DNA of 64,000 nucleotides. It comes from Shigella phage vB_SsoM_113. Both the position numbers and the translations under genes were made by a program. Shown here one piece after another: positions 1,978 to 17,651 of the stretch (within the stretch, counting starts at the first letter, position 1; every line of letters starts with the position of its first letter). The stretch is from sequence record LR746311. One strand, 5' to 3'. The notes under the pieces were generated by a model. It did no database searches. It saw only the letters and a program-made list of their open reading frames with translations, and had not been told where the DNA came from.

Positions 1978-3180
1978 ATGAAAGTATGCATTTTTATGGC
2001 TCGAGGTCTTGAAGGTTGTGGCGTAACTAAATTTTCTCTTGAGCAGCGTGATTGGTTTATTAAAAATGGTCATGAAGTAACTTTGGTTTATGCTAAAGAT
2101 AAATCATTTACCCGTAATTGCGCGCATGATTATAAATCATTTTCAATTCCGGTTTTATTGGCAAAAGAATACGATAAAACACTTAAGCTGGTAAATGATT
2201 GTGATATTCTAATTATCAATTCAGTTCCTGCTACTTCAGTAGAAGAAGACACTATTAATAACTATAAAAAAATTATTGATAACATTAAACCTTCGGTTCG
2301 TGTTGTAGTTTATCAACATGACCATTCTTCTCTTTCTTTGCGCCGAAATTTGGGATTAGAAGAAACTGTTCGTCGAGCTGATGTTATTTTTAGTCATTCT
2401 GATAATGGTGATTTTAATAAAGTTCTGATGAAAGAATGGTATCCAGAAACAGTTTCTCTGTTTGATGATATTGAAGAAGCACCGACTGTATACAACTTTC
2501 AGCCTCCTATGGATATTGCGAAGGTTCGATCAACCTACTGGAAAGATGTTTCTGAAATTAACATGAATGTCAACCGTTGGATTGGTCGTACGACTACATG
2601 GAAAGGTTTTTATCAGATGTTTGATTTTCACGAAAAACATCTTAAACCTGCAGGACTAAGTACTATTATGGAAGGTCTGGAACGTTCTCCAGCGTTCATT
2701 CCTATTAAAGAAAAAGGAATTCCATACGAGTATTATCGTCTTCATCAAGTAGACCAAATTAAAATTGCTCCTAATTTGCCGACGCAAATTCTCGACCGTT
2801 ATGTAAATAGCGAAATGCTTGAACGCATGAGTAAATCCGGATTTGGTTATCAGTTGAGTAAGTTGGACAAAAAATATCTACAACGTTCTTTAGAATATAC
2901 TCATCTCGAGCTTGGTGCATGTGGAACAATTCCAGTATTTTGGAAATCTACTGGCGAAAATTTAAAATTCCGTGTTGATAATACTCCGTTAATTTCTCAT
3001 GATAGCGGTATCGTTTGGTTTGATGAAAATGACATGGAATCAACATTTGAACGTATTAAAGAACTGTCATCTGACCGAGCTCTTTATGACCGTGAACGCG
3101 AAAAAGCTTATGAATTTTTGTATCAGCATCAAGATTCAAGCTTCTGCTTTAAAGAACAGTTTGACATTATTACAAAATAA
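1978..3180 (+). CDS. agt: DNA alpha-glucosyltransferase
   Basis: 400-aa product MKVCIFMARGLEGCGVTKFSLEQRDWF, recognised as T4 alpha-gt; GAGGA RBS. Confidence 0.93.
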   Translation: MKVCIFMARGLEGCGVTKFSLEQRDWFIKNGHEVTLVYAKDKSFTRNCAHDYKSFSIPVLLAKEYDKTLKLVNDCDILIINSVPATSVEEDTINNYKKIIDNIKPSVRVVVYQHDHSSLSLRRNLGLEETVRRADVIFSHSDNGDFNKVLMKEWYPETVSLFDDIEEAPTVYNFQPPMDIAKVRSTYWKDVSEINMNVNRWIGRTTTWKGFYQMFDFHEKHLKPAGLSTIMEGLERSPAFIPIKEKGIPYEYYRLHQVDQIKIAPNLPTQILDRYVNSEMLERMSKSGFGYQLSKLDKKYLQRSLEYTHLELGACGTIPVFWKSTGENLKFRVDNTPLISHDSGIVWFDENDMESTFERIKELSSDRALYDREREKAYEFLYQHQDSSFCFKEQFDIITK

Positions 3181-3221: not shown

Positions 3222-3360
3222 GATATTTCTTGGATATGTGATACTTTTTCTCGCATTTTATCTATTCACTAGAGCATGTTGGATTGGGTTCTTTAGCACT
3301 CCGGACGGATTTATTTCAATAATTTTATTTTGCATTTCAATGACGGTTCTTGATATATGA
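3220..3360 (+). CDS. small hydrophobic protein (46 aa)
   Basis: GGAG RBS, ATG 3220; MIFLGYVILFLAFYLF; stop overlaps next ATG (ATGA). Confidence 0.35.
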   Translation: MIFLGYVILFLAFYLFTRACWIGFFSTPDGFISIILFCISMTVLDI

Positions 3361-3980
3361 AAAAATATATAACTTATTTAACAATATATAGTGGAGATAA
3401 ACTTCCTCCTTTTTATATTGGATCTACGTCTTTAGATAGGCATTTAGCTGGATATCATGGTTCAGTTTTATCTAAAAAGTATAAGAAAATTTATAATAAA
3501 GAGCTTTCAGATAATCCTCACTTATTTGATTCATGCATTTTAGCTGAATTTGATACGCGTGAAGAAGCTATTAAATGCGAGTTATATTATCAACGATTGC
3601 ATGATGCAGTTAAAAATCCATTATTCTTTAATATGTCATATGCTGCTCCAAAAGGTTCATTTGGAAGAGATAATAAAGGACAAAATCATCCATTATATGG
3701 TTCTCATAATTGTAAAGGAAATATACATTCACATGATCCATTAACAGGAAAATCTGCCTTTTTGCCTTATATTCCAGAAGGTTATGTAAAAGGAAGGTCA
3801 AATAAATTTAAAGCTTCATCACATAATAAAGGTAAAAAATGGTATAATAACGGAGTTAAGCAAATGTTGTGTCATGAACCTCCTGGTCCTGAATGGACAA
3901 AAGGAAAAATTAAAGAACTGGTTTCAAAAGCAGCTAAATTAGGATGGAAAAGACACCATGAAAATACTAAACTTGGGTGA
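3357..3980 (+). CDS. GIY-YIG family homing endonuclease-like protein (Seg-like)
   Basis: N-terminal IY-x8-YIGST motif; C-terminal basic region with KKWYNNG; 23-nt overlap with gene 47. Confidence 0.7.
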   Translation: MKKYITYLTIYSGDKLPPFYIGSTSLDRHLAGYHGSVLSKKYKKIYNKELSDNPHLFDSCILAEFDTREEAIKCELYYQRLHDAVKNPLFFNMSYAAPKGSFGRDNKGQNHPLYGSHNCKGNIHSHDPLTGKSAFLPYIPEGYVKGRSNKFKASSHNKGKKWYNNGVKQMLCHEPPGPEWTKGKIKELVSKAAKLGWKRHHENTKLG

Positions 3981-10510: not shown

Positions 10511-13207
10511 ATGAAAGAATTTTATATCTCTATCGAAACAGTCGGAAATAACATTGTTGAGCGCTATATTGATGAAAACGGAAAGGAACGTACTCGTGAA
10601 GTAGAATATCTTCCGACTATGTTTAGGCATTGTAAGGAAGAGTCAAAATACAAAGACATTTATGGTAAAAATTGTGCTCCTCAAAAATTTCCATCAATGA
10701 AAGATGCACGAGACTGGATGAAGCGGATGGAAGACATCGGTCTCGAAGCTCTCGGTATGAACGATTTTAAACTCGCTTATATCAGTGATACATATGGTTC
10801 AGAAATTGTTTATGACCGAAAATTTGTTCGTGTAGCTAACTGTGACATTGAGGTTACTGGTGATAAATTTCCTGACCCAATGAAAGCAGAATATGAAATT
10901 GATGCTATCACTCATTATGATTCAATTGATGATCGTTTTTACGTCTTTGATTTGTTGAATTCAATGTACGGTTCAGTATCAAAATGGGATGCAAAGTTAG
11001 CTGCTAAGCTTGACTGTGAAGGTGGTGATGAAGTTCCTCAAGAAATTCTTGACCGAGTAATTTATATGCCATTTGATAATGAGCGCGATATGCTCATGGA
11101 ATATATTAATCTCTGGGAACAGAAACGACCTGCTATTTTTACTGGTTGGAATATTGAGGGATTTGACGTTCCGTATATCATGAATCGTGTTAAAATGGTT
11201 CTCGGTGAACGTAGTATGAAACGCTTCTCTCCAATCGGTCGAGTAAAATCTAAACTAATTCAAAATATGTACGGTAGTAAAGAAATTTATTCTATTGATG
11301 GCGTATCTATTCTTGATTATTTAGATTTGTACAAGAAATTCGCATTTACTAATTTGCCATCGTTCTCTTTGGAATCAGTTGCTCAACATGAAACCAAAAA
11401 AGGTAAATTGCCGTACGATGGTCCTATTAATAAACTTCGTGAGACTAATCATCAACGATACATTAGTTATAACATCATTGACGTAGAATCAGTTCAAGCA
11501 ATTGATAAAATTCGTGGGTTTATCGATCTAGTTTTAAGTATGTCTTATTACGCTAAAATGCCTTTTTCTGGTGTAATGAGTCCTATTAAAACTTGGGATG
11601 CTATTATTTTTAACTCGCTGAAAGGTGAACATAAGGTTATTCCTCAACAAGGTTCGCACGTTAAACAGAGTTTTCCGGGTGCATTTGTATTTGAACCTAA
11701 ACCGATTGCTCGTCGATACATTATGAGTTTTGACTTGACGTCTCTATATCCTAGCATTATTCGTCAGGTTAACATTAGTCCTGAGACTATTCGTGGGCAG
11801 TTTAAAGTTCATCCAATTCATGAATATATCGCAGGAACAGCTCCTAAGCCAAGTGATGAATATTCTTGCTCTCCGAATGGATGGATGTATGATAAGCACC
11901 AAGAAGGTATCATTCCAAAGGAAATCGCTAAAGTATTTTTCCAGCGTAAAGATTGGAAAAAGAAAATGTTCGCGGAAGAAATGAATGCCGAAGCTATTAA
12001 AAAGATTATTATGAAAGGCGCAGGGTCTTGCTCAACTAAACCAGAAGTTGAACGATATGTTAAGTTCAGTGATGATTTCTTAAACGAATTATCGAATTAC
12101 ACCGAATCTGTTCTTAATAGTCTGATTGAAGAATGTGAAAAAGCTGCTACACTTGCTAACACAAATCAGCTGAACCGTAAAATTCTTATTAACAGTCTTT
12201 ATGGTGCTCTTGGTAATATTCATTTCCGTTACTATGATTTGCGAAATGCTACTGCTATCACAATTTTCGGTCAAGTCGGTATTCAGTGGATTGCTCGCAA
12301 AATTAATGAATATCTGAATAAAGTATGTGGAACTAATGGTGAAGATTTCATCGCAGCAGGTGATACTGATTCAGTATATGTTTGTGTAGATAAAGTTATT
12401 GAAAAAGTAGGTCTTGATCGCTTTAAAGAACAAAATGATTTAGTTGAATTCATGAATCAGTTTGGTAAGAAAAAGATGGAACCTATGATTGATGTTGCAT
12501 ATCGTGAGTTATGTGATTATATGAATAACCGCGAGCATCTGATGCATATGGACCGTGAAGCTATTTCTTGCCCTCCGCTTGGTTCAAAGGGTGTTGGTGG
12601 ATTTTGGAAAGCGAAAAAACGTTATGCTCTGAACGTTTATGATATGGAAGATAAGCGATTTGCCGAACCGCATCTAAAAATCATGGGTATGGAAACTCAA
12701 CAAAGTTCAACACCAAAAGCAGTACAAGAAGCTCTCGAAGAAAGTATTCGTCGTATTCTTCAGGAAGGTGAAGAGTCTGTTCAAGAATACTACAAGAACT
12801 TTGAGAAAGAATATCGTCAACTTGATTATAAAGTTATTGCTGAAGTAAAAACTGCGAATGATATAGCGAAATATGACGATAAAGGTTGGCCAGGATTTAA
12901 ATGCCCGTTCCATATTCGTGGCGTACTAACTTATCGTCGAGCTGTTAACGGTTTAGGCGTAGCTCCAATTTTGGATGGAAATAAGGTAATGGTTCTTCCA
13001 TTACGTGAAGGAAATCCATTTGGTGATAAGTGCATTGCTTGGCCATCGGGCACAGAACTTCCAAAAGAAATTCGTTCTGACGTACTGTCTTGGATTGACT
13101 ACTCAACTTTGTTCCAAAAATCGTTTGTTAAACCACTTGCTGGTATGTGTGAATCGGCAGGTATGGACTATGAGGAAAAAGCTTCGTTAGACTTCCTGTT
13201 TGGCTGA
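10511..13207 (+). CDS. 43: DNA polymerase gp43 (family B)
   Basis: 898 aa; exo motifs and polymerase motifs YGDTDS, DxxSLYPS. Confidence 0.97.
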   Translation: MKEFYISIETVGNNIVERYIDENGKERTREVEYLPTMFRHCKEESKYKDIYGKNCAPQKFPSMKDARDWMKRMEDIGLEALGMNDFKLAYISDTYGSEIVYDRKFVRVANCDIEVTGDKFPDPMKAEYEIDAITHYDSIDDRFYVFDLLNSMYGSVSKWDAKLAAKLDCEGGDEVPQEILDRVIYMPFDNERDMLMEYINLWEQKRPAIFTGWNIEGFDVPYIMNRVKMVLGERSMKRFSPIGRVKSKLIQNMYGSKEIYSIDGVSILDYLDLYKKFAFTNLPSFSLESVAQHETKKGKLPYDGPINKLRETNHQRYISYNIIDVESVQAIDKIRGFIDLVLSMSYYAKMPFSGVMSPIKTWDAIIFNSLKGEHKVIPQQGSHVKQSFPGAFVFEPKPIARRYIMSFDLTSLYPSIIRQVNISPETIRGQFKVHPIHEYIAGTAPKPSDEYSCSPNGWMYDKHQEGIIPKEIAKVFFQRKDWKKKMFAEEMNAEAIKKIIMKGAGSCSTKPEVERYVKFSDDFLNELSNYTESVLNSLIEECEKAATLANTNQLNRKILINSLYGALGNIHFRYYDLRNATAITIFGQVGIQWIARKINEYLNKVCGTNGEDFIAAGDTDSVYVCVDKVIEKVGLDRFKEQNDLVEFMNQFGKKKMEPMIDVAYRELCDYMNNREHLMHMDREAISCPPLGSKGVGGFWKAKKRYALNVYDMEDKRFAEPHLKIMGMETQQSSTPKAVQEALEESIRRILQEGEESVQEYYKNFEKEYRQLDYKVIAEVKTANDIAKYDDKGWPGFKCPFHIRGVLTYRRAVNGLGVAPILDGNKVMVLPLREGNPFGDKCIAWPSGTELPKEIRSDVLSWIDYSTLFQKSFVKPLAGMCESAGMDYEEKASLDFLFG

Positions 13208-13220
13208 TAGAATAAATCTA

Positions 13221-13241
13221 GGGACCTCCGGGTCCCTTTTT
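13221..13241 (+). terminator. rho-independent terminator after gene 43
   Basis: gggacc-tccg-ggtccc hairpin followed by TTTTT. Confidence 0.6.
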
Positions 13242-13323
13242 CATACAAGTAATATAAATCTATACTTAAGAAAAATAGATGATTCTAGGTCCTGTAAATT
13301 CATTAAAAATTTTTCACAAAACT

Positions 13324-13353
13324 GTTTACAAGACTGTTCCTCTGTGGTACTAT
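13324..13353 (+). promoter_or_regulatory. T4-type early promoter
   Basis: GTTTAC -35 at 13324, A-rich upstream, -10 region ggTACTATacaact. Confidence 0.55.
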
Positions 13354-13387
13354 ACAACTATCAACCAATACAAATTTGGAGAATGAA

Positions 13388-13768
13388 ATGAAAATTGCTA
13401 TTTTGGTTATTGCATTAGGTCTTACTGGTTGTGTAGCTCAAGGACCGGTAGTAAATCAGTCTGATGCAGGAAAAATTGTAAACTGTTCAAGCAAATTTTA
13501 TAATCCTAACGTCAAGTGTTATAAAGAGGCTCCAAAACAGACAGTAGAACAAATGCAGGCGAATTTTGACGAAGCTATTCGTCCAGACGAATCTGCTCAA
13601 GCATATCGTAATTCGGATGTAATTACACGCGAAGAAAAAATTGAAAACTACTGCGCCGAACTTTGGGCTAATTGGGCTAATAATTACCAATGGCGTACTG
13701 GTAAAAACGCTCCGATGGAGTATGTAGTGAATTCTTATAATTCATGCGTAAAAAATTTGACTAAGTGA
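13388..13768 (+). CDS. putative lipoprotein (126 aa)
   Basis: signal peptide with lipobox LTGC; GGAG RBS; lies between 43 and imm. Confidence 0.6.
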   Translation: MKIAILVIALGLTGCVAQGPVVNQSDAGKIVNCSSKFYNPNVKCYKEAPKQTVEQMQANFDEAIRPDESAQAYRNSDVITREEKIENYCAELWANWANNYQWRTGKNAPMEYVVNSYNSCVKNLTK

Positions 13769-13775
13769 GGAAAAG

Positions 13776-14027
13776 ATGGAAACTTTAGTAGCAGGTTCAA
13801 TTTTTATGGTTTTAGTTTCAGGCGTGTTGGCTATTATTATATACATGCTTCCGTGGTTCATCGCCTTGATGCGTGGGTCAAAATCGACAGTAGGAATCTT
13901 TTTCACGTCTTTACTGTTTAATTGGTCAATTATTGGTTGGTTTATTACATTTATTTGGTCAATTGCGGGTGAAACTAAAAAATCCGCACAACCAAATCAA
14001 GTAATTATCATCAGAGAGAAGGAATGA
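13776..14027 (+). CDS. imm: superinfection immunity protein Imm
   Basis: 83-aa two-TM protein at T4 imm position; GAGGAAA RBS. Confidence 0.85.
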   Translation: METLVAGSIFMVLVSGVLAIIIYMLPWFIALMRGSKSTVGIFFTSLLFNWSIIGWFITFIWSIAGETKKSAQPNQVIIIREKE

Positions 14028-14173
14028 AAAGCAAAATTTTAGCAGTATTGCTTTTAATCTTGATGATTATAATAAGTATATACTATAGCGTAACGGTTCC
14101 TTGTATGATTCCGACACTTATTATAGGTTGGGGTTTATTACTGTTACAAGTTAAATATGAATGCATCAATTGA
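14024..14173 (+). CDS. small hydrophobic protein (49 aa)
   Basis: ATGA-coupled to imm; not in track (under 60 aa). Confidence 0.4.
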   Translation: MKSKILAVLLLILMIIISIYYSVTVPCMIPTLIIGWGLLLLQVKYECIN

Positions 14174-14180
14174 GGTTTAA

Positions 14181-14921
14181 ATGATTAACGATTATATGAC
14201 AGTTGAAGAAATCCGTCTTGATTTGGGTCTTGCATTAAAGGAAAAAGATTTCGTAATTGATAAAACTGGTGTTAAAACTATTGAAATTATTGGTGCATCA
14301 TTTGTAGCAGATGAACCTTTTATTTTTGGCGCTCTTAATGATGAATACATTCAGCGTGAACTTGAATGGTATAAGTCTCAAAGTCTGTTTGTTAAAGATA
14401 TTCCAGGTGAAACACCGAAGATTTGGCAACAGGTAGCATCTTCTAAAGGCGAAATTAACTCAAATTATGGTTGGGCCATCTGGTCAGAAGATAACTATGC
14501 CCAGTATGATATGTGTTTAGCTGAACTTGGTCAAAATCCTGATTCTCGACGTGGTATCATGATTTATACTCGTCCATCTATGCAGTTTGACTACAATAAA
14601 GATGGTATGTCAGATTTCATGTGTACGAATACCGTACAGTATCTGATTCGTGACAAGAAAGTCAATGCAGTTGTTAATATGAGAAGCAATGACTGCTGGG
14701 CAGGCTATCGTAATGATTATGCATGGCAAAAATACGTACTAGATAAATTAGTATCTGATTTGAATGCAGGCGACCCATCGCGGCAATATAAAGCAGGTTC
14801 TATTATATGGAACGTTGGAAGTCTTCATGTGTACGAAAATCAGTTTTATTTAGTTGACCATTGGTGGAACACTGGTGAAACTCATATTGCTAAAAAGGAT
14901 TATACTGGAAAATGGAAGTAA
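14181..14921 (+). CDS. 42: dCMP hydroxymethylase gp42
   Basis: 246-aa product MINDYMTVEEIRLDLGLALKEKDF, recognised as T4 gp42. Confidence 0.95.
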   Translation: MINDYMTVEEIRLDLGLALKEKDFVIDKTGVKTIEIIGASFVADEPFIFGALNDEYIQRELEWYKSQSLFVKDIPGETPKIWQQVASSKGEINSNYGWAIWSEDNYAQYDMCLAELGQNPDSRRGIMIYTRPSMQFDYNKDGMSDFMCTNTVQYLIRDKKVNAVVNMRSNDCWAGYRNDYAWQKYVLDKLVSDLNAGDPSRQYKAGSIIWNVGSLHVYENQFYLVDHWWNTGETHIAKKDYTGKWK

Positions 14922-15553
14922 ATGTGCCACATGTTTATAAGTATAAACATCCTAAAACTAAAAAGTGGTATATAGGAAGTCATGATGGTCACAACCCAAA
15001 TTATGATGGTTCGGGTGTAGTTTGGCAACATGCTAAAAAGAAATATGGAATAAAATCCTTTAATAAAGAAATATTATATGAAGGACCAATGTTTAGACAG
15101 GTTGAAGAAATTATTTTAACTTGTTTAGATGCTGCTAATTGTCCGGATTCATATAATTTAAAGAATGAAGCATGGGGAGGAAGTTTTCCAGGCAAATTAA
15201 ATGGAATGTACGGTAAAAAACTATCTCCAGAAGAAAGATATAAGTGCGGAAATGCCTTTCGTGGAATCAAGCGTCCTGATCATTCTAAAAGAATGAAAGG
15301 CGAAGGTAATCCAATGTATGGTAAAAATGAGCAGGCATATGGAATTATAAATCGAGCAAAGGAAAATTCTGGTAAAACTTATGAAGAAATTTTTGGCGCA
15401 GAAAAAGCTAAAATAATTAAAGAAACGATGTCTAAAAATCGTAAAGGAAAACCTCATAATTTGATAGAAAAAATATGTCCGCATTGCGGACTAAAAGGAC
15501 GTGGGCCAAATATGACAAGATACCATTTTGACAAATGTAAGGCACTTAAATGA
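14912..15553 (+). CDS. GIY-YIG homing endonuclease-like protein with NUMOD-like repeats and C-terminal zinc finger
   Basis: VY-x10-YIGS motif; repeats MYGKKLSPEERYK / NPMYGKN; CPHCG...C at C-terminus. Confidence 0.7.
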   Translation: MEVNVPHVYKYKHPKTKKWYIGSHDGHNPNYDGSGVVWQHAKKKYGIKSFNKEILYEGPMFRQVEEIILTCLDAANCPDSYNLKNEAWGGSFPGKLNGMYGKKLSPEERYKCGNAFRGIKRPDHSKRMKGEGNPMYGKNEQAYGIINRAKENSGKTYEEIFGAEKAKIIKETMSKNRKGKPHNLIEKICPHCGLKGRGPNMTRYHFDKCKALK

Positions 15554-16392
15554 TTCAATTCGTAATTCCAAGCTATCAACGCGTAGGGGCAGTTTCTGCC
15601 CTTGATATGTTTCCATCTGATTATGAACCACATATTGTAGTACGTAAACATGAAGAAAAAGCTTATTATGATGCTTACGGGTCTAGAGCCAAAATTATAA
15701 CTATTCCTGATGATGTCAATGGAATTGCTGGTACTCGTAAAGCAATTACTGATATGTATGCAGGTCAACGAATTTGGATGATTGATGATGATACTACTAT
15801 TCGTATGAGTTCAATGCGAAAAAGAGATGATCGTCGCTGCGTAGATAAAATTAATCAGTTAACTCGTGAACAGTTCTATGAATTGATTCAATACGTCGAA
15901 GATGCCATGGATTGTGGGTATTATCACGGTCATGCTCGTCTACCTATTTTTAAAATTACTTCATCTTGGGGTAATTATCGTGAAAATTCATATGGATTCA
16001 CGAATACTTGGTATGACCTCGGGAAACTTACAACAGAACAAATTGGATATGGAAAAATTGATTTATGCGAAGATATGTATGCATTTCTCAATTTAATTAA
16101 TCAAGGTTATCCGCATTTGGCCTTGTTCAAATATCTGGTTGTATCTGGAAAAGCGCAAGCTCCAGGCGGATGTAGTTCAATTCGTAGTAATTCAAAACAT
16201 AATAGAGCTCTTGAGCAAATCAATAGAGAGTTTCCAGAGCAAGCTCGTTGGAAAACATCGAATATTGAAAAGAGAAAATCGTTGGGTGAAGAAGACGAGC
16301 CATTAAAGGTTCTTCGCATGTGTGTTTCGCGCAAAGAAAAATCAGAAGCGTTTCATAAGTTTAATGCTATTCATCCAATAGCAGTTGATTAA
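15550..16392 (+). CDS. GT-A fold glycosyltransferase (probable DNA glucosyl-HMC modifying enzyme)
   Basis: N-terminal FVIPSYQR and DDD (DxD) motifs typical of GT-A; sits where T4 has beta-gt. Confidence 0.7.
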   Translation: MIQFVIPSYQRVGAVSALDMFPSDYEPHIVVRKHEEKAYYDAYGSRAKIITIPDDVNGIAGTRKAITDMYAGQRIWMIDDDTTIRMSSMRKRDDRRCVDKINQLTREQFYELIQYVEDAMDCGYYHGHARLPIFKITSSWGNYRENSYGFTNTWYDLGKLTTEQIGYGKIDLCEDMYAFLNLINQGYPHLALFKYLVVSGKAQAPGGCSSIRSNSKHNRALEQINREFPEQARWKTSNIEKRKSLGEEDEPLKVLRMCVSRKEKSEAFHKFNAIHPIAVD

Positions 16393-16469
16393 TGCCTAAA
16401 TTTATTGTGTTATAATTACTTTATCTTTAACCAGTGAGGAAAATATAATGATGCCTATGGAAAAAATGA

Positions 16470-17651
16470 ATGTCTATTGCAGATTTAAAATCCCGTTTGA
16501 TTAAAGCTTCCACTTCTAAAATGACTGCTGAACTGACTACATCTAAATTCTTTAATGAAAAGGATGTAATCCGTACAAAAATCCCAATGCTTAATATCGC
16601 TATTTCTGGTGCAATTGATGGTGGTATGCAGTCTGGTTTAACCATTTTTGCAGGTCCTTCTAAACACTTTAAATCAAATATGTCTTTGACTATGGTTGCG
16701 GCGTATTTGAACAAATATCCTGACGCGGTATGTCTATTCTATGATAGCGAATTTGGTATTACTCCAGCTTATTTGCGATCCATGGGAGTTGACCCGGAAC
16801 GAGTAATTCATACACCAATTCAGTCAGTTGAACAGCTGAAAATTGATATGGTGAATCAGCTTGAAGCTATTGAGCGTGGTGAAAAAGTTATTGTATTCAT
16901 CGACTCAATTGGTAATATGGCTTCTAAGAAAGAAACGGAAGATGCCTTGAATGAAAAATCTGTGGCAGATATGACTCGTGCTAAATCACTGAAGTCATTA
17001 TTCCGTATTGTTACTCCTTATTTTAGTATTAAAAACATTCCGTGTGTTGCGGTTAACCATACAATTGAAACAATTGAAATGTTTAGTAAAACCGTGATGA
17101 CAGGTGGTACAGGCGTAATGTATTCGGCTGATACTGTGTTCATTATCGGTAAGCGCCAGATTAAAGATGGTTCTGATCTTCAGGGGTATCAATTTGTTCT
17201 AAATGTAGAAAAATCTCGTACCGTTAAAGAAAAAAGTAAATTCTTTATTGATGTTAAATTTGACGGTGGCATCGATCCTTATTCTGGATTGTTAGATATG
17301 GCTCTTGAATTAGGATTTGTGGTAAAACCTAAAAATGGCTGGTATGCTCGTGAATTTCTTGACGAAGAAACCGGTGAGATGATTCGCGAAGAAAAATCTT
17401 GGCGTGCAAAAGATACCAATTGCACTACATTCTGGGGTCCTTTATTTAAGCATCAGCCATTCCGAGATGCTATTAAACGCGCTTATCAGTTAGGTGCTAT
17501 TGATAGTAATGAAATTGTTGAAGCTGAAGTTGATGAATTGATTAACTCAAAGGTTGAAAAATTTAAATCTCCAGAAAGTAAAAGTAAATCAGCAGCTGAT
17601 TTAGAAACTGACCTAGATCAGTTAAGTGATATGGAAGAATTTAATGAATAA
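16470..17651 (+). CDS. uvsX: recombinase UvsX (RecA-like)
   Basis: 393-aa product, Walker A GPSKHFKS, recognised as T4 UvsX. Confidence 0.95.
   Translation: MSIADLKSRLIKASTSKMTAELTTSKFFNEKDVIRTKIPMLNIAISGAIDGGMQSGLTIFAGPSKHFKSNMSLTMVAAYLNKYPDAVCLFYDSEFGITPAYLRSMGVDPERVIHTPIQSVEQLKIDMVNQLEAIERGEKVIVFIDSIGNMASKKETEDALNEKSVADMTRAKSLKSLFRIVTPYFSIKNIPCVAVNHTIETIEMFSKTVMTGGTGVMYSADTVFIIGKRQIKDGSDLQGYQFVLNVEKSRTVKEKSKFFIDVKFDGGIDPYSGLLDMALELGFVVKPKNGWYAREFLDEETGEMIREEKSWRAKDTNCTTFWGPLFKHQPFRDAIKRAYQLGAIDSNEIVEAEVDELINSKVEKFKSPESKSKSAADLETDLDQLSDMEEFNE

Follow-up and report, generated by a model that had tools for sequence, protein, structure and literature searches.

The open reading frame (ORF) at 15550..16392 of the Shigella phage vB_SsoM_113 sequence very probably encodes the T2/T6-type beta-glucosyl-HMC-alpha-glucosyltransferase (ba-GT, also called ggt or TAGT), the enzyme that forms gentiobiosyl-hydroxymethylcytosine (gentiobiosyl-hmC). 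The window analyzed here is a stretch of 64,000 nucleotides from this phage (sequence record LR746311). The gene is already known: it is a routine copy of a characterized T2/T6 enzyme that occurs in hundreds of sequenced T4-like phages. The original biochemistry of the T2 and T6 enzymes is said to be that of Lehman and Pratt in 1960, Kornberg et al. in 1961 and Kuno and Lehman in 1962, and the genes were reportedly cloned by Winkler and Rueger in 1993.

Genomic setting

The window holds, on the + strand, a Tequatrovirus-like block of replication and recombination genes with the order 55, a-gt, 47, 46, rpbA, 45, 44, 62, regA and 43, followed by imm.1, imm, 42, a homing-endonuclease-like gene (HEG), ba-gt, uvsX, 40 and 41. 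The nucleotide identity of this block to many Escherichia, Shigella and Yersinia Tequatroviruses is 95-97%. The genes that matter for the argument are:

1978..3180, + strand: a-gt, DNA alpha-glucosyltransferase, 400 aa (PF11440 AGT, E=5e-236; PHROG 2888, E=8e-222)
14181..14921, + strand: gene 42, dCMP hydroxymethylase, 246 aa (PHROG 160, thymidylate-synthase family, E=1e-65)
14912..15553, + strand: homing-endonuclease-like ORF, 213 aa (PHROG 314, E=2e-31)
15550..16392, + strand: ba-gt/ggt, beta-glucosyl-HMC-alpha-glucosyltransferase (TAGT family, GT-A fold), 280 aa, ATG start, intact
16470..17651: uvsX

An earlier reading of the sequence had placed a 280-aa ORF between gene 42 and uvsX. Its position, coordinates and length hold; gene 42, however, does not adjoin it, as the 213-aa ORF intervenes. 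The ORF is far beyond chance expectation. Gene 42 is syntenic with gene 42 of T4, T2 and T6, and the a-gt product is 90.75% identical to T4 alpha-gt over 400 aa (tblastn match at 1978..3177). The T2/T6 ba-gt/ggt gene (PHROG 842) likewise lies between gene 42 and uvsX and is partnered by alpha-gt and gene 42.

Upstream of gene 42, an imm.1-like gene of 130 aa (13376..13768, + strand; PHROG 1754) is followed by the superinfection immunity gene imm of 83 aa (13776..14027, + strand; PHROG 1039), the same gene order as in T4. UGKSEcP1 and T2 have an annotated gene of ~85 aa 5' of imm.1; at the matching position the window has at most a 63-aa ORF with a TTG start (13200..13391).

Identity of the 280-residue protein

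Profile searches classify the protein as a glycosyltransferase, as had been proposed. It matches PHROG 842, "beta-glucosyl-HMC-alpha-glucosyltransferase", over its whole length (E=2.5e-88), and Pfam PF20691 (TAGT, TET-associated glycosyltransferase) at 37.8 bits against a gathering threshold of 27.5, the match spanning the model from position 2 to 205 of 205. Since the score against the Pfam model is only 37.8 bits, the T-even branch is divergent within PF20691. This branch is partnered by dCMP hydroxymethylase and alpha-GT and not by a TET/JBP dioxygenase. By megablast, 474 phage records match ba-gt over its full length at 90-98% nucleotide identity, many of them bearing the name beta-glucosyl-HMC-alpha-glucosyltransferase.

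The closest evidence comes from the reference loci of T2 (AP018813) and T6 (AP018814), whose proteins are each 98% identical to the window protein over 280 columns; the T2 protein is also 280 aa long. S23 and K33 of the window protein are unique relative to T2, T6 and UGKSEcP1, while I101 differs from T2 and T6 and is shared with UGKSEcP1. Up to about seven further sites depart from T2 or T6, and the window protein is a mosaic of T2/T6 variant positions with S23 and K33 of its own. With this degree of identity, the same locus, and both a-gt and gene 42 present, the suggestion in the original prediction of a gentiobiosyl-forming enzyme of the T2/T6 type is supported.

Two other glycosyltransferases were considered and rejected. 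T4 beta-gt is ruled out both by the 98% identity to T2/T6 ba-gt and by a tblastn search of the whole window with the T4 protein, whose best match has E=0.13 with none at the ba-gt locus; the ORF is, as first stated, not the 351-aa T4 enzyme. An arabinosyltransferase is ruled out by the same identity, and the Mosigvirus arabinosyltransferases occupy other loci (PMC13390438).

Public T6 records show that propagated stocks can acquire damage in this gene: both AP018814 and MH550421 carry ba-gt lesions. Such damage lends some color to the idea that the window ORF is an inactive pseudogene remnant kept only by recent descent, but the window copy has lost neither length nor any conserved residue, its protein identity to the orthologue is 98% with 98.2% nucleotide identity, and the gene is intact in hundreds of phages. 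A remnant is very improbable, and an intact T2/T6-type gene is retained. The two lesions differ. AP018814 (4138-4974) lacks one GAT of the DDD triplet and encodes 279 aa with 'IDDTT'. In MH550421 (2138-2983) codon 10 is a stop (SY*RV); its annotation begins at Met20, and a protein started there would be without the conserved IPSYQR strand. The activity of ba-GT may vary between laboratory stocks of T6; alternatively, a sequencing error may explain one of the lesions.

Fold and conserved motifs

The FVIPSYQR and DDD motifs named in the original prediction are both present. Together with a third motif they are located as follows:

15559..15582, + strand: FVIPSYQR, residues 4-11, N-terminal beta-strand-1 motif
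15784..15792, + strand: DDD, D79-D81 (GAT GAT GAT), DxD motif
16069..16074, + strand: E174-D175 ('CEDMY'), ED motif

Of 1.84 billion cluster representatives searched with a profile, 2261 matched at E<=0.001. Conservation was read from an alignment of 91 of these relatives, at 17-64% identity to the query, all 91 of which match PF20691 and no further glycosyltransferase family. Five residues are invariant across the 91 homologues (R11, D80, D175, G186 and G207), and nine more are at least 90% conserved (I6, P7, R63, D79, D81, L180, G206, R212 and P229). The window protein thus shares with the PF20691 family the invariant R11, the DDD motif, D175 and the GG motif.

A PDB search found neither a chain with detectable sequence similarity to the 280-aa protein nor a solved structure for any TAGT family member. 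The best match of the family profile to PDB sequences is a weak one (E=0.17) to AvpGT (9jma), a GT-A enzyme, in which FVIPSYQR pairs with 'VIIPTYNRPE', so that IPSYxR falls on 'IPTYNR', and DDD pairs with 'LDDDD'; the pairing of 'CEDMY' with AvpGT 'VEEDWDF' is a weak alignment in domain 2 and is not significant. Because the DDD motif is both conserved in the family and aligned on the AvpGT 'DDDD', it is taken as a genuine DxD motif. An AlphaFold2 model built from an 11-sequence alignment (mean pLDDT 78, pTM 0.81) has a single Rossmann-like alpha/beta/alpha nucleotide-sugar domain that is structurally similar to solved GT-A enzymes. Its strands include residues 3-7 at FVIPSYQR and 74-78, a central strand ending at the conserved DxD, which would bind metal; the loops at residues 131-148 and 202-210 are of low confidence or disordered (pLDDT <50). 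FVIPSYQR would form part of the region of the GT-A fold that binds the nucleotide sugar.

The protein had been called a GT-A, GT2-like enzyme. The fold and motifs bear this out, whereas membership of GT2 at the sequence level does not follow: the protein has no match to Pfam Glycos_transf_2 (PF00535) at E<=1, so it is GT2-like only in fold and motifs. This agrees with the published placement of TAGT as a sister group to GT2 in the GT-A superfamily, in a study that also modeled the T6 TAGT with AlphaFold3 (PMC13216743). Its sequence identity to the GT2-type GT-A enzymes AvpGT (9jma), TarP (6h1j), SpsA (1h7l) and WrtF (9omh) is 7-17%. These enzymes act on lipid, polysaccharide or protein acceptors, while the acceptor of ba-GT is predicted to be a sugar on duplex DNA.

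Proposed pathway and reaction

The window encodes both the alpha-glucosyltransferase and the dCMP hydroxymethylase that would make the acceptor. With a-gt, gene 42 and ba-gt present and beta-gt absent, the window holds the T2/T6-type set rather than the T4-type set. In the proposed pathway, gene 42 would make hm-dCMP and so give 5-hydroxymethylcytosine in phage DNA, after which the alpha-glucosyltransferase would put an alpha-linked glucose on hmC in duplex DNA. ba-GT would then take host UDP-glucose as donor and the 6-OH of the alpha-linked glucose on hmC as acceptor, and the predicted product is beta-1,6-linked gentiobiosyl-hmC in duplex DNA. An alpha-linked donor and a beta-linked product would imply an inverting mechanism. 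D79-D81 are the putative ligands of a divalent metal and, with it, of the UDP diphosphate, and the leading candidate for catalytic base in such an inverting GT-A enzyme is D175. The catalytic-base role of the ED motif is taken from GT2-type enzymes.

T4 beta-gt occupies the syntenic locus 3' of gene 42, and the two enzymes are probably alike in using UDP-glucose, in forming a beta linkage and in modifying hmC DNA. They are otherwise distinct: T4 beta-gt has a GT-B fold and ba-GT a GT-A fold, with no detectable sequence similarity, and T4 beta-gt glucosylates bare hmC while ba-GT would extend alpha-glucosyl-hmC.

The T2/T6 enzyme has been named as PF20691/TAGT. Phages usually combine TAGT with an alpha-GT (or a beta-GT), the alpha and beta pair of T4 being a rare exception (PMC13216743). 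Genetic evidence for the function of the enzyme comes from the T6 orthologue only (PMC11078745, PMC13160076). T6 with ba-gt deleted contains only alpha-glucosyl-hmC, its DNA is degraded after treatment with Brig1, and the mutant is more sensitive to Brig1 immunity (PMC11078745, Nature 2024). BapA releases glucose from T6 delta-g-gt DNA and not from T6 DNA (PMC13160076).

Specificity does vary within the family, as solitary TAGT homologues occur in 288 of 753 phage genomes and TAGT is also paired with either alpha- or beta-GT (PMC13216743). It is nonetheless highly improbable that the window enzyme uses another sugar donor or glycosylates hmC directly: at 98% identity it is far closer to T2/T6 than to the diverged solitary TAGTs, alpha-gt co-occurs, and the few substitutions seen are unlikely to bring about such a change.

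Extent of diglucosylation

How much gentiobiosyl-hmC the enzyme would make is a separate matter. Among near-identical Tequatroviruses the share is about 5% in T2, about 72% in T6, and about 40% or about 67% in the Durham phages (PMC13390438, PMC13160076). T2 and T6 have near-identical enzymes yet are about 14-fold apart, and the amount of product is therefore not predictable from the presence of the gene.

It is accordingly conceivable, though unlikely, that ba-gt contributes little in vB_SsoM_113, as in T2. In that case nearly all hmC in the DNA would be either alpha-monoglucosylated or bare. Lower expression could be the cause, with translational coupling to gene 42 swapped for coupling to the HEG, or else the substitutions E33K and T23S. 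The T2 enzyme, at 98% identity and with so little product beside that of T6, is a precedent, and the HEG insertion alters the sequence just 5' of the ba-gt ATG. Measured Tequatroviruses also split into two classes with hmC:glc:gent ratios of about 1:2:2 and about 1:0:2 (PMC13390438). Against a low contribution, the protein retains every family-invariant residue, the stop/start overlap of four bases (ATGA) with the upstream ORF is kept, and nucleoside measurements in ten Tequatroviruses with alpha-GT plus TAGT found substantial gentiobiosyl-mdC, about 40-67%, in 10/10, with no beta-glc-mdC (PMC13390438, AEM 2026).

The preferred reading predicts for vB_SsoM_113 a mix of hmC, alpha-glucosyl-hmC and gentiobiosyl-hmC, with no beta-monoglucosyl-hmC. 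From this expected hypermodification follows a predicted behavior towards modification-dependent defenses. The Brig1 glycosylase and the BapA deglucosylase recognize mono-alpha-glucosyl-hmC, from which gentiobiosylation would shield the DNA, and the phage should be partly protected from both. It should stay visible to GmrSD/BrxU-type enzymes; GmrSD-type Type IV enzymes would still recognize gentiobiosylated DNA, as reported for gentiobiosyl-hmC (PMC13216743). The use of these predictions lies in the annotation of expected hypermodification and in host-range prediction for phage therapy. They open no new question, because the biology is standard for T-even phages and no arrangement is commoner in the genus than alpha-GT plus TAGT.

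A homing-endonuclease insertion upstream of ba-gt

The 213-aa ORF upstream of ba-gt is 37% identical to T4 SegA over 111 aa, and its match to NUMOD3 is sub-threshold. The insertion is a 636-bp block placed exactly between the gene 42 stop and the ba-gt ATG, in such a way that the AAATGA stop/start overlap is recreated; it is missing from T2, T6 and UGKSEcP1. It is carried by 77 phage records at 98-100% identity, with flanking ba-gt at 90-98%. Since the insertion is more conserved than the flanking ba-gt, it fits a recently spreading mobile element. Placed before ba-gt, the homing-endonuclease ORF could alter ba-gt expression. A more speculative idea, which we regard as improbable, is that the replacement of the native upstream context by the 636-bp insertion, together with E33K and T23S, might tune the amount or activity of ba-GT and so help to set differences in the ratio of mono- to di-glucosyl-hmC. 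The Durham Collection phages (accessions from PMC13390438) are not among the matches listed for the 77 insertion carriers, and their genomes may lie outside the searched collection.

A promoter and terminator scan of 13900-16700 showed no excess of either kind of site: 13 promoter-like sites against 13.7 expected and two terminator-like sites against 1.2, the expectations being from shuffled sequence. The ba-gt coding sequence contains, at its 5' end, a hairpin with a 9-bp stem (15584..15604, + strand), TAGGGGCAG-TTT-CTGCCCTTG, followed by a T-rich stretch; its sequence is conserved in T2, T6 and UGKSEcP1. As terminator-like sites show no excess over shuffles, the hairpin may reflect chance or coding constraint.

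Between alpha-gt and gene 47 there is another free-standing endonuclease ORF (3357..3980, + strand; 207 aa), which overlaps the start of gene 47 (3958) by 23 nt. It matches PHROG 10820 (E=1e-94) and reaches 21.4 bits against Pfam GIY-YIG, for which the threshold is 22.6. At this position T4 has the small 47.1 gene, and alpha-gt stands between that position and T4 mobB.
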